From the IMG/VR virus record IMGVR_UViG_2698536649_000010: a stretch of 9,075 bases of DNA, one strand, 5' to 3'. Position 1 is the stretch's first letter, and every line of letters starts with the position of its first letter. A model generated the notes under the pieces. That model made no database searches and had not been told where the DNA came from. It worked only from the letters and a program-made list of their open reading frames with translations. Shown here piece by piece: positions 3,791 through 7,458 of this stretch. Position numbers and translations under genes: made by a program. This DNA is from a virus. Taxonomy: Duplodnaviria > Heunggongvirae > Uroviricota > Caudoviricetes.

Positions 3791-4225
3791 ATGAGCGATA
3801 GCTGGTATCCGTCACGGGATTTTCGACGACGGGCTGCGTTGTGGGGGATGGCTTTGCCGGAGACAGAATTTACACCTGCTGAACTTGCCGCCTTCCGGGA
3901 CTACTGGGCAGCGGAGGGGAAAGTGTTTACGCAGATTCAGTGGGAGCAGAAATTCGCCCGTCACGTAAATCACGTCAGGGCGCAGGTTAAACCAGTCAGC
4001 AAAGGGGTAAACCATGCAGCAGCACCAGGTGGCACCGCATCACGGGCAGTTCAGGAAATTCGGGCAGCACGTGAGCAGTGGGAACGTGAAAACGGATTTA
4101 TCAGCGACGGAAACGGCCTGGAAGCTGTGGGAACTCATGGGGGTGGTTTATTCGAACCGCTGGATCCAGAAGAACGGGGCCGCACCTTCGAAGCTCTGGA
4201 TTGCACAGATTGGCGCGATGACTGA
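3791..4225 (+). CDS. DnaT C-terminal-domain-like (primosomal protein I-like) ORF; probably the frameshifted C-terminal half of the initiator
   Basis: Product YPSRDFRRRAALWGMALPETEFTPAELAAFRDYWAAEGKVFTQIQWEQKFAR aligns with recalled E. coli DnaT ([55 protein letters not shown]). The similarity continues upstream of ATG 3791 in the same frame (EPIGKFPM versus VPMGKFAM), where no start codon exists. 3' end in this frame (4225) overlaps the P-like gene by 212 nt, so the true stop is uncertain. Confidence 0.5.
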   Translation: MSDSWYPSRDFRRRAALWGMALPETEFTPAELAAFRDYWAAEGKVFTQIQWEQKFARHVNHVRAQVKPVSKGVNHAAAPGGTASRAVQEIRAAREQWERENGFISDGNGLEAVGTHGGGLFEPLDPEERGRTFEALDCTDWRDD

Positions 4226-4713: not shown

Positions 4714-5448
4714 ATGGAAACCGTTTTTGACGCACTGAAAGCGATGGGAAAAGCCACGTCGGTATAGCTGGCTGCGCGACTTGATATCAGTCGTGAAGAA
4801 GTACTGAACGAGCTGTGGGAACTGAAAAAGGCTGGCTTCGTTGATAAAAGCGTATACACCTGGCGTGTGGCTGATAACAACGTTCAGCAGGAACAGCCAG
4901 CGCCAGAAGAAACCACCACGGCAACAGAAGCGAAAATCTCAGAGTGCGATTTAACCGCGACGATTGAACAACGCGGACCACAAACGGCGGATGAACTGGC
5001 TACGCTGTTCGGTACAACATCCCGCAAAGTTGCTTCAACGCTGGCAATGGCAATCAGCAAAGGTCGTCTGATTCGCGTAAACCAGAACGGTAAAATTCGT
5101 TACTGCATACCAGGTGATAATTTACCAGCAGAGCCGAAAGTTGAATCGGTAGCGGAAACCGATGGTAAAGCCTTTCCTCAGCCAGCCGGTGTTGCGTTAC
5201 CGGTACAGAAAGATGCAACACAGGAAGATATTAAAACAGAAACTGTGGCGGACATTGTGCAGTCGCTGCCATCGTTTACTGCAACGCGAGAAGATGATTT
5301 GATTTTGCCATCGCTGCATATGGCAAATCGCGAACTGCGTAGGGCGAAGAATCATGTCCAGAAGTGGGAGCGAGTCTGCGCCGCGCTGCGGGAGCTGAAC
5401 AAGCACCGGGATATGGTTGCCGGGATTTGTCGGAAGTCCGGGCAATGA
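4714..5448 (+). pseudogene. double winged-helix protein gene interrupted by an in-frame amber codon
   Basis: ATG at 4714 with GGAGG SD 8 nt upstream. Codon 18 is TAG (4765..4767) and the same frame continues open to 5448. The N-terminal repeat ([40 protein letters not shown]) and a second repeat ([38 protein letters not shown]) both look like winged-helix units. First possible restart downstream is GTG 4867. Confidence 0.55.
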
Positions 5449-5483
5449 GCGGATGGTGCAGGCCTGAAATCATGATACTAACA

Positions 5484-6056
5484 ATGAAGGTAAAATGCAT
5501 CGGCAGTCTGATTGGTCGTAGTGAGGCGGCGGTCAGGATGAAAGCCCAGGTTAAGGGAATAAGCCTGATTCTGCGGGGTGATTTTCACCAGTCAACAAAA
5601 TATCCGTAGCGCGATAACGGTCAAAAATTATGGCGCTGACACTTTTGTGCCACTGGAGATGACTGTACCTAAGTTCAGGGGAGAAGAACACGTCCGGTGG
5701 GATGGTCGGGCCAGATTTAAAGGGCAGGTCATGGCTCCAGCCTGTACGCTGGCAATGGAGGCTGCCTGGCGGGAAATTGATATGGGAACCACGCCACTCA
5801 GGGATTTACTGCCGGTCCAGAGAATAAATTCCTGTTACGGTTACACCACTGTGATCTTGCAAGTGCAGGAAAGTAGGTCTACACGGTAACGCGAGTGCGT
5901 GTAACTTTTGATGTCATTCCCGTAGAAACACCGGACAAATTTTCGCTGACAGGTCATGCAGAAGGTATAAATCTGCAGATTATGGACAATTACGGATATC
6001 CGGCAAGAGCCGGAAAAAGCATGCCGCCTCTAATTCTCAGTGGAAGATGGACTTGA
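5484..6056 (+). pseudogene. decayed fimbrial major-subunit-like gene remnant (chaperone-usher type)
   Basis: Three successive frames carry fimbrial-like segments: a signal-like MKVKCIGSLIG (from 5484), then GRARFKGQVMAPACTL...INSC (5578..5889; compare FimA GGTVHFKGEVVNAACAV...LNDC), then GINLQIMDNYG (5895..6056; compare FimA GVQILDRTG). At least two frame changes are needed, and the usual C-terminal strand is missing where the AT-rich block begins. Confidence 0.35.
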
Positions 6057-6307
6057 TTATACTCATTGCATTGTCAGAAATAGTTATCCATTAAAGGCTG
6101 GCTATTCCAAACAGGATGTTGATTACAAAAATGTAATCAACATGTAAGGTTTATACTCTTCAATATGCGTATAATTTTCCTTATTTTGTTGACTTTAAAT
6201 AACAAGCTATGCACGAGGTAAAGTCGGATAAGTTTATCTGGATGTAATATATATTATTTGTAGTGTTTATAACTTTATTTCATGATAACCAATAAAAGGA
6301 GTTTTTT
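6057..6307 (+). promoter_or_regulatory. AT-rich upstream region of the binding-protein moron (promoter not resolved)
   Basis: Strongly AT-rich compared with flanking phage genes. Contains a 10-bp inverted repeat GTTGATTACA-AAAA-TGTAATCAAC (6118..6141), a TATAAT hexamer at 6170..6175, TTGACT at 6189..6194, and a strong SD AAGGAG at 6296..6301 before ATG 6308. Confidence 0.35.
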
Positions 6308-7066
6308 ATGAGGAACATAATGGCAGGTTTTTTAATATTCCTGTCTTCTGCTGCTTATGCTGATATCAATCTGTATGGTCCTGGTGGCCCGCATACAGCC
6401 TTGCTTGATGCAGCCAAACTTTATGCCGAAAAAACAGGTATTATAGTGAACGTTCATTACGGCCCACAGAACAAATGGAATGAAGATGCCAAAAAAAATG
6501 CAGATATCTTGTTTGGCGCATCAGAACAATCTGCTCTGGCTATCATTCGGGACCATAAAGACAGCTTCAGTGAAAAAGATATTCAGCCTCTTTATCTGCG
6601 AAAAAGTATTTTACTGGTAAAGAAAGGTAATCCTAAAAATATCCGGAGTATTGACGACCTGACCAGACCTGGGATTGGCGTAATTGTTAATGATGGTGGT
6701 GGTACCAGTAATACATCAGGCACTGGCGTCTGGGAAGATATTGCCGGACGTAAAGGGAATATAGAAACTGTCGCCGCAATCCGAAAAAATATTATTTTAT
6801 ATGCGCCCAATAGCGGAACTGCACGTAAGGCTCTTGAGAATCAGCCTGGAGCAGATGTCTGGATAACCTGGGCTGACTGGGCAGCCAGTAATCCAGAAAT
6901 TGGTGATGTCGTGGAAATAGCGCCAGACTACGTGATATGGCGTGATATGAACATTACAGTACGTCAGGATGCAAATGATGAAACCCGTCGATTTGCAGAA
7001 TGGCTACAAACCGATGAAGCGGCGCCTGCATTCAAAAAATATGGCTGGACCAGGAAAGGCACTTGA
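6308..7066 (+). CDS. secreted periplasmic substrate-binding protein, ModA-like fold; orphan (no transporter genes adjacent)
   Basis: 252-aa product with N-terminal signal peptide (MRNIMAGFLIFLSSAAYA then DINLYG). Resembles recalled E. coli ModA at several points (ADILFGASEQSA versus ADLFISADQKW; C-terminal RFAEWLQTDEAAPAFKKYGW versus AFYDYLKGPQAAEIFKRYGF). AT-rich codon usage. Confidence 0.8.
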   Translation: MRNIMAGFLIFLSSAAYADINLYGPGGPHTALLDAAKLYAEKTGIIVNVHYGPQNKWNEDAKKNADILFGASEQSALAIIRDHKDSFSEKDIQPLYLRKSILLVKKGNPKNIRSIDDLTRPGIGVIVNDGGGTSNTSGTGVWEDIAGRKGNIETVAAIRKNIILYAPNSGTARKALENQPGADVWITWADWAASNPEIGDVVEIAPDYVIWRDMNITVRQDANDETRRFAEWLQTDEAAPAFKKYGWTRKGT

Positions 7067-7067
7067 C

Positions 7068-7098
7068 ATCCTCGTCCTTCAGGACGTGGATTCTTTTT
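7068..7098 (+). terminator. intrinsic terminator of the binding-protein gene
   Basis: Begins 2 nt after the TGA stop: stem ATCCTCGTCC / GGACGTGGAT (9 of 10 pairs), loop TTCA, followed by TCTTTTTCC. Confidence 0.6.
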
Positions 7099-7220
7099 CC
7101 GGATGCCGCGCCAGCGGCATGTAGGGGCAGCTCACAAAACGGAAAAAATTGTACGCTAAGCCTCGCCAGGTGAACTGAATTCATTCCGATATGGGAATTC
7201 CCATATCGGGCGAAAACGGT

Positions 7221-7249
7221 TTGCTGTAACGGCAGAGTTAAGTAGGATT
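7221..7249 (+). promoter_or_regulatory. candidate promoter of the hok-type mRNA
   Basis: -35 TTGCTG (7221..7226), 17-bp spacer, -10 TAGGAT (7244..7249); predicted start near 7256, giving a 5' end GGUGCUUGAGGCUAUCUGCCUC that resembles the 5' end of plasmid R1 hok mRNA as I recall it. Confidence 0.3.
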
Positions 7250-7302
7250 GCTGCGGGTGCTTGAGGCTATCTGCCTCGGGCATGAACACCAACGGCAGAT
7301 AG

Positions 7303-7353
7303 ATAAAAGCCCCACCCGACTATAAATCGAAGTGAGGCCCCTATATGCTCGTC
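7303..7353 (-). ncRNA. candidate Sok-like antisense RNA
   Basis: Minus-strand hairpin (7309..7339, stem with two G-U pairs) followed by a U-run (7308..7303). Possible promoter on the minus strand: -35 TTGACC (+7383..7388), 17-bp spacer, weak -10 CAATCT (+7360..7365). It is antisense to the hok leader around the mok start, where Sok acts in known hok/sok loci. Confidence 0.3.
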
Positions 7354-7401
7354 ACATATAGATTGCCTCTTACGGACCGAAAGGTCAAGGAGAAGCAGGC
7401 T

Positions 7402-7458
7402 ATGAAGCAGCAAAAGGCGATGTTAAAAGGCGGGGGAGAAATCCCTCGCCACCTCTGA
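7402..7458 (+). pseudogene. hok: truncated hok toxin ORF (18 codons; HokD-like N-terminus, transmembrane segment absent)
   Basis: Encodes MKQQKAMLKGGGEIPRHL then stop. The first 8 residues match recalled HokD/RelF (MKQQKAMLIALIVICLTV...); the hydrophobic helix and C-terminal domain are missing in all three frames before the terminator, implying an internal deletion of roughly 100 to 130 bp. Confidence 0.55.

Follow-up and report, generated by a model that had tools for sequence, protein, structure and literature searches.

Results

A foreign insert in the early region of a lambdoid prophage

The stretch of DNA analyzed here (9,075 nt; hereafter the window) comes from a lambdoid (Rac/Qin-like) prophage of EHEC and related E. 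coli, of which it covers the immunity, replication and early region. The host prophage is of the paa/adfO-carrying lambdoid type of EHEC (OI-57/CP-933O, PPompW type). The window recurs at 99.8–100% identity in hundreds of complete genomes, among them O157:H7 (including EDL933), O26, O111, O103 and O145, and ‘PPompW’ prophages in the phage collection match it as well. At the identical locus in RefSeq, the genes run in the order dicA-like repressor, cro-like, YdaT-like, DnaT-like and P-like replication genes, DUF1627 (YdaW-like), a 54-aa ‘hypothetical protein’, a ‘fimbrial protein’ pseudogene, paa (‘AcfC family adhesin Paa’), hokD, DUF968, RusA and Q. In some O157:H7 genomes, the DnaT-like replication gene of the same prophage carries IS1203 (L001 3377–4589 in E. 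coli O157:H7 PV15-279, corresponding to about window position 3944), unlike the window, where this gene is uninterrupted.

The part of the window considered below contains the following features:

4867–5448, + strand: phage early gene (DUF1627, YdaW-like), after which no backbone gene is intact until the insert begins (Pfam DUF1627, E=5e-93; RefSeq annotation DUF1627)
5484–5609, + strand: what remains of a phage HTH DNA-binding protein gene (84 aa when intact), namely its first 41 codons followed by TAG; backbone homology ends at 5616
5617–5641, no strand assigned: junction filler of 25 nt and uncertain origin, which matches neither the phage backbone nor the pilin gene significantly
5642–6106, + strand: papH/pixH-like pilin pseudogene fragment, equivalent to nt 71–550 of a 588-nt gene (blastn, DNA alignment, lesion mapping, protein matches)
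6104–7123, + strand: paa cassette (plasmid matches; blastn 6104–7126 against L004 and L005, 6114–7126 against L003)
6104–6307: AT-rich upstream region of the paa cassette (33% GC), containing the palindrome 6117–6144
6308–7066, + strand: paa CDS, AcfC-family/SBP_bac_11 adhesin Paa/AdfO (Pfam SBP_bac_11, E=5.5e-34)
7124–7170, + strand: Tn3-family transposon stub, a 37-nt terminal inverted repeat GGGGCAGCTCAC...GTACGCTAAG (7124–7160) plus 10 nt of interior (alignment to L094)
7171–7426, + strand: resumed phage backbone (matches to prophages L095 and L009), including the palindrome 7186–7209 and the sok region

Positions 5617–7170 form a foreign insert of 1.55 kb that consists of the 25-nt filler, the pilin fragment, the paa cassette and the Tn3-family inverted repeat (IR) stub. 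Compared with the paa-less prophage L009, the backbone is collinear on both sides, over 5007–5616 (L009 4501–5137 by blastn) and 7213–7426, and L009 has 1.8 kb of other genes between these two blocks. The insert is a discrete block, as lambdoid morons are: it is missing from related phages and lies between backbone genes. It stands in place of about 1.8 kb of small genes of the early/nin region and has truncated a phage HTH gene at codon 41. The stub that is left shares 85% amino acid identity with residues 1–41 of the intact gene in L009 (5005–5259); the HTH occupies residues 44–77 of that protein and is thus absent from the stub. A preliminary description of this locus, made from the sequence alone, had placed the left limit of a fimbrial gene remnant at 5484, which is the first position of this phage gene stub. 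ORF 5445–5609, a ‘hypothetical protein’ in public records (WP_001505071.1), is an artifact: it is the truncated HTH gene stub read from an upstream ATG.

Direct homologues identify the fragment as part of a pilin gene

The frame-repaired translation of the fragment matches 148 fimbrial proteins. The best matches (E=3e-71) are 195-aa proteins at 77–78% identity, several of which carry the source names PixH or PapH. Among solved structures its sole match is the P-pilus minor pilin PapH (2j2z_B, from PDB 2J2Z, PapD-PapH), with E=2.9e-51 over residues 3–160 of 173. On the DNA level, window positions 5642–6106 align by blastn to nt 71–550 of intact 588-nt genes (L006 and L011) with 84.8–86.0% identity over 480 columns. 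The preliminary description had recommended tblastn across the region; run with an intact relative as the query, this search returned three collinear pilin segments (aa 24–79, 80–161 and 163–182). The motifs that had suggested a pilin in the first place, namely a Cys pair, FKG and QIxD, are all present (RARFKGQV, the cysteines in PACTL and RLHHCDL, and NLQIMD). Both disulphide Cys codons are kept, but a 10-nt deletion separates them and puts them in different frames.

Generic profiles are nearly blind to the fragment. Pfam PF00419 does not match the repaired pilin translation, the NCBIfam pilin models (LpfA/LpfE/FimG/FimI) match it weakly (E about 1e-3 to 1e-2), and even an intact relative barely clears PF00419, with 28.9 bits against a cut-off of 25.6. 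Because these models barely see the fragment, the evidence for a pilin comes from direct homologues and not from profile models. The preliminary description had looked to profile searches for a verdict on its pilin reading; in these, Pfam is silent and NCBIfam weak, but the direct homologues are far above chance. A chance pattern of short motifs would fit the silence of PF00419 and the marginal NCBIfam values, yet the odds of such a coincidence are negligible in view of the direct homologues at E=3e-71, PapH at E=3e-51 over 155 residues and 86% DNA identity over 480 columns. We rejected chance resemblance on these direct homologue, structure and DNA-level matches.

The fragment resembles PapH/PixH, the terminator of P-like pili

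On these matches, the fragment reads as part of a PapH/PixH-type minor pilin, that is the terminator/anchor subunit of P-like/Pix-type chaperone-usher pili, and is predicted to be non-functional. PapH ends the growth of the P pilus and anchors the fibre, for which it needs the PapD chaperone, the PapC usher and the PapA rod; termination has been tied to the absence of a P5 pocket (PMC3960871). The intact relatives of the fragment are flanked by the major pilin gene and the usher gene in papB-pilin-pixH-usher-chaperone-PapJ-pilin-adhesin operons, whose order in full is papB-like regulator, pilin, pixH-like, usher, chaperone, PapJ, minor pilin, adhesin and EAL protein. Intact operons of this Pix/Pap (pi-fimbrial) layout sit on islands with integrases and IS elements. 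When the prophage loci L001 and L010, which span the region, were searched by tblastn for pilin A, usher, chaperone, PapJ and minor pilin, none of these was found, and the pixH fragment was the sole match.

The fragment is truncated at both ends and frameshifted twice

We mapped lesions and truncations base by base on a DNA alignment with intact genes. Pilin homology starts at 5642, possibly at about 5636, and the first 70 nt of the gene, with the start codon and signal peptide, are absent. MAFFT puts the filler (5617–5641) opposite pixH codons about 15–23 at low identity; this short stretch may be the degenerate end of the signal-peptide coding region. Compared with intact genes, 10 nt are deleted after 5809, codon 105 has changed from CAG to a TAG stop (5874–5876), and 5 nt are deleted after 6042. 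Past the 5-nt deletion, the first frame resumes for 18 codons (EDGLDYTHCIVRNSYPLKAG), to about 6103–6106. Homology ends after ...PLKAG, at about 6103, and the gene's final 12 codons (YYAALRFKLDYE), which encode the C-terminal strand, are absent along with the stop codon. In line with the preliminary description, the fragment thus lacks the C-terminal beta-strand (YYAALRFKxDYE) that completes the Ig-like fold; paa-cassette DNA common to plasmids stands in its place.

Together, the 10-nt and 5-nt deletions remove 15 nt, so that the sequence occupies just two frames (coordinate mod 3 = 1, then 0, then 1), and not three as had been described. The right limit had likewise been set too early: 6056 is the stop of the middle frame, the pilin sequence continues to about 6104, and the binding-protein block, thought to begin at about 6057, begins at 6104. 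Public annotation overshoots in the other direction. PGAP gives a pseudogene ‘fimbrial protein; frameshifted; internal stop’ at window positions 5614–6147, and its right limit is the next downstream stop codon, which lies within unrelated paa-cassette DNA. ORF 5578–5889 (103 aa; BCI48947.1, annotated in LC567818) is an artifact, formed by the first pilin frame running out of frame.

The fragment has evolved without the constraint typical of its family

The pairwise dN/dS between the fragment and the closest intact gene is 0.395, as compared with 0.07–0.17 for intact pairs (simple Nei-Gojobori counts over only 152 shared codons). In a three-point estimate with L092 as the outgroup, the fragment branch has a dN of about 0.087 and a dS of about 0.126, a ratio of about 0.69, whereas for the intact sister branch these values are about 0.0045 and 0.105, and dN/dS is about 0.04. 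The fragment carries 14 private substitutions at alignment columns with a conservation of 95% or more in 116 intact homologues; the intact proteins have a median of 1, and numbers like that of the fragment are found only in the most divergent members of the family. The purifying selection typical of the PapH/PixH family is therefore not seen in the fragment. Judged by its relaxed dN/dS and the 14 private changes, the fragment appears to be an old pseudogene that has spent most of its independent history without constraint.

Compared with the divergent variant L010, the fragment shows 98.9% identity and paa 98.8%, so that it changes at the same rate as its flanks. Since the split from the nearest intact relative a dS of about 0.1 has accumulated, a long survival for junk DNA in bacteria that could hint at a retained role.

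The paa cassette abuts the pilin fragment and is shared with plasmids

paa is adfO (z2053) of O-island 57/CP-933O, which has been reported together with the hok-like ckf (z2054) as virulence-associated prophage cargo (PMC8565820). The paa cassette also occurs at 85–89% identity on IncF plasmids of E. coli and E. albertii, where it is not accompanied by the pilin fragment. The prophage and two unrelated plasmid contexts share a left edge of the cassette at 6104; in a third plasmid context, the edge is at 6114. The junction between pilin and cassette has the sequence CCATTAAAGGCTGGCTATTCCAAACAGGATG and contains a microhomology at 6101–6108 (GATTAC in pixH versus ATACC in the cassette; TATTCC in the window).

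At the left edge of the cassette lies a perfect 12-bp inverted repeat, ATGTTGATTACA-aaaa-TGTAATCAACAT (6117–6144), whose core TTGATTACAAAAATGTAATCAA the plasmid copies retain; an operator and a recombination site are possible roles. Hairpins are found at the 3′ side of the cassette, with a terminator-like hairpin at 7073–7086 after paa. A promoter and terminator scan of 5400–7450 yielded 4 promoter-like matches against a shuffled expectation of 4.1, and no convincing promoter was called in 6104–6307. The plasmid paa-like cassettes lie within 1–2 kb of other virulence genes. On the E. albertii plasmid pEA22_1 the neighbor is a gene for an NleG-family T3SS effector (L005 6195–6842), and on the bovine E. 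coli plasmid pCFS3246-1 it is the heat-stable enterotoxin gene sta1, flanked by IS1 (L004 6060–6275).

A Tn3-family end closes the insert

Directly after the paa cassette stands a Tn3-family IR (7124–7160; GGGGCAGCTCACAAAACGGAAAAAATTGTACGCTAAG), and the remainder of the transposon is absent. The sequence across the paa/IR junction is GCGGCATGTAGGGGCAGCTCACAAAACGG. In plasmid copies of the paa cassette, the site corresponding to 7123/7124 is uninterrupted. The IR agrees at 35/38 positions, with a 1-nt gap, with the tnpA-end IR of an intact element on plasmid locus L094, a Tn3-family transposon with tnpA and resolvase that is bounded by inverted IRs. The sequence at 7124–7160 agrees with the pattern of Tn3-family ends, in which an IR of about 38 bp starts with GGGG, ends with ACGCTAAG and lies by the tnpA 3′ end. 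We sought a second, inverted Tn3-family IR within the window and found none; the best reverse-complement match was 21/38.

The junction between the stub and the phage lies within 7163–7172, at a microhomology (TCGCC.GG.GAACTG), and the backbone of L095 can be followed from about 7163–7172. Taken together, the junction microhomologies look like the signature of illegitimate recombination among plasmid/island DNA and not of in-place operon decay.

The resumed backbone has features of its own. It contains a perfect 24-nt palindrome (CCGATATGGGAATTCCCATATCGG, 7186–7209), which other prophages have within small ‘hypothetical protein’ genes that precede hokD, or just downstream of such genes. The sok antitoxin RNA is intact (Rfam RF01794, 7255–7404, 103.9 bits), though its hok target is deleted in the window: hokD (= ckf, z2054) is cut to its first 8 codons (7403–7427; deletion point about 7426/7427). 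Relative to all complete genomes compared, this deletion removes 137 nt, comprising codons 9–51 and a few bases beyond. For a junction-spanning probe, none of the best matches listed among complete E. coli genomes contained the deletion as one piece. According to published work, adfO and ckf are always found together (PMC8565820).

The pilin fragment is strictly linked to prophage-borne paa

A search of 5,426 complete E. coli genomes at an identity of at least 95% yielded 575 records with the pilin fragment and 576 with paa. The next-best pilin matches in E. coli (85–86%) are intact operon genes elsewhere in the chromosome, with nothing between. The fragment accompanies every prophage-borne copy of paa and is absent from the plasmid paa-like copies (36 records). 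We found no intact or longer pilin copy at the prophage locus in the 5,426 complete E. coli genomes or in 50,697 phage records. The related prophages to which the preliminary description had turned for an intact pilin moron thus yield none in the complete E. coli genomes, and even the one divergent variant examined, L010 from a chicken isolate, has both breakpoints, both deletions and the TAG just as in the window.

For a broader view, paa homologues were taken from 80 loci on one-genome-per-species contigs (E. albertii, Citrobacter, Edwardsiella, Providencia, Vibrio cholerae and others). We then screened for a donor by tblastn of six Pix-operon proteins against the closest 34 of these loci (L012–L045), together with the plasmid loci L003–L005 and the prophages L001 and L010. 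Outside the prophage, the 34 closest loci and L003–L005 showed no pilin by paa; Citrobacter gave the only other match, an unrelated chaperone at a distance of about 6 kb. A donor locus with the pixH-paa junction was not found outside the prophage. In the published work that we found on paa/adfO and OI-57, neither the pilin fragment nor the Tn3 IR stub flanking paa is mentioned.

Discussion

Origin of the pilin fragment

We consider it probable that the pilin fragment is non-functional passenger DNA that was imported with paa as part of a scrambled mosaic. On a plasmid or island, the paa cassette would have joined the 3′ part of a pixH-like gene by illegitimate recombination at the 6101–6108 microhomology. 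A Tn3-family element would have landed just downstream of paa, and a slice of this scrambled region would then have been captured by the phage, again via illegitimate recombination. In such a scenario, paa would be the only selected cargo, and the pilin fragment would be kept by linkage. With its start, signal peptide and C-terminal strand missing, two frameshifts, a TAG and no partner genes, it is predicted to make no pilin. The joint presence of a plasmid-type paa cassette and a Tn3-family IR stub in the same insert points to import as already-scrambled DNA. The homologies, lesions, breakpoints, linkage and relaxed constraint are shown by the sequence comparisons, whereas we infer the order of these events and the nature of the donor replicon; likewise, because no pixH-paa donor junction was found outside the prophage, we infer rather than observe that the two pieces came in together.

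The preliminary description had favored an older moron that decayed and was later truncated where the binding-protein block begins. Much of what it saw agrees with our results: a decayed pilin remnant does lie between the replication functions and the hok/nin/RusA/Q genes, which is a classical moron position, its branch shows long relaxed evolution, and the paa cassette abuts and truncates it at 6104. These same observations would fit a full pilin gene, or a whole Pix-like operon, that was once a moron here, lost its function in place and was cut by the paa block. Yet the fragment is also cut at its 5′ end, against the truncated phage gene, and there is no trace of pixA, usher or chaperone at the locus. 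No longer or intact copy exists among the 5,426 E. coli genomes and 50,697 phage records, and both breakpoints are common to all copies examined. Moreover, a lone PapH-type terminator is useless without usher, chaperone and rod (PMC3960871), and the Tn3-family IR stub and plasmid-type cassette in the insert suggest that it was assembled elsewhere. We therefore retain the decay and the cut by the paa block, and regard an intact pilin moron at this locus, decaying in place, as unlikely.

A role for the fragment after its inactivation has to be weighed as well. The strict linkage to paa in about 575 genomes, the survival of the fragment despite its old inactivation, a sigma-70-like promoter match at 6034–6063 and the annotation of ORF 5578–5889 in LC567818 might all be taken to mean that the fragment has a function for paa or for the phage, be it as a promoter or leader, as an RNA or as a short ORF (for example the 103-aa ORF 5578–5889). 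Against such exaptation, plasmid paa-like genes keep just 6104–6307 upstream and do without the fragment. Because this is all that they keep, the sequences that natively control paa probably lie inside the cassette. The promoter-like matches are as many as expected in shuffled sequence (4 versus 4.1), there is no Rfam match in the fragment, the 103-aa ORF is the first pilin frame extended into out-of-frame sequence and has no Pfam match, and substitutions relative to L010 have accumulated at the same rate as in neighboring DNA. Exaptation thus strikes us as very improbable. In a more specific form, the fragment would be kept as a transcribed leader or promoter-bearing spacer that either couples paa to phage early transcription or insulates it, and the mosaic would record the move of paa from a plasmid or island to a phage by transposon-associated illegitimate recombination; this combined proposal we rate as a long shot.

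Significance

That a frameshifted fimbrial pseudogene lies here is already known from RefSeq, which annotates it in hundreds of EHEC genomes. Our analysis adds the assignment to PapH/PixH, the exact lesions, the true limits (5642–6106) and the mosaic structure. The importance for biology at large is small, and the value mainly corrective, in that it concerns the subtype, the limits and the artifact ORFs 5445–5609 and 5578–5889. The description of the paa moron of OI-57-type prophages as a three-piece mosaic with plasmid and transposon hallmarks nevertheless gives a checkable trail for how paa reached the phage, and the junctions at 5616/5617, 6104, 7123/7124 and about 7170 are usable as typing markers of the prophage lineage.

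Comparison with known systems

Like PapH (2J2Z) and PixH, the fragment is collinear with residues 3–160 of mature PapH, shares 77–78% amino acid identity with 195-aa PixH-like proteins, and has a recognizable N-terminal extension motif (GEEHV.WDGR), FKG, both Cys codons and LQI.D. Unlike them, it is without start codon and signal peptide, carries two frameshifts and one nonsense codon, has paa-cassette DNA in place of its last 12 codons, and lies outside any pap/pix operon, with usher and chaperone not nearby. It is 100% identical to the RefSeq/PGAP pseudogene upstream of paa in EHEC (for example ECpv15279_RS30025 and the EDL933 locus); by contrast with that entry, which spans 5614–6147 and gives no subtype, we limit the homology to 5642–6106 and assign the subtype PapH/PixH.

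The adjoining cassette (6104–7126, including about 200 bp upstream and the palindrome 6117–6144) is like the paa-like (AcfC-family) cassette on IncF plasmids of porcine and bovine E. coli and of E. albertii. The plasmid cassettes differ from it to the left of 6104, where they have unrelated DNA, and to the right of about 7123, where they have a common plasmid sequence instead of the Tn3-family IR. As a whole, the locus in the window is the paa/adfO moron of OI-57/CP-933O/PPompW prophages, and it departs from the described OI-57 moron in that the hok/ckf gene is mostly deleted.
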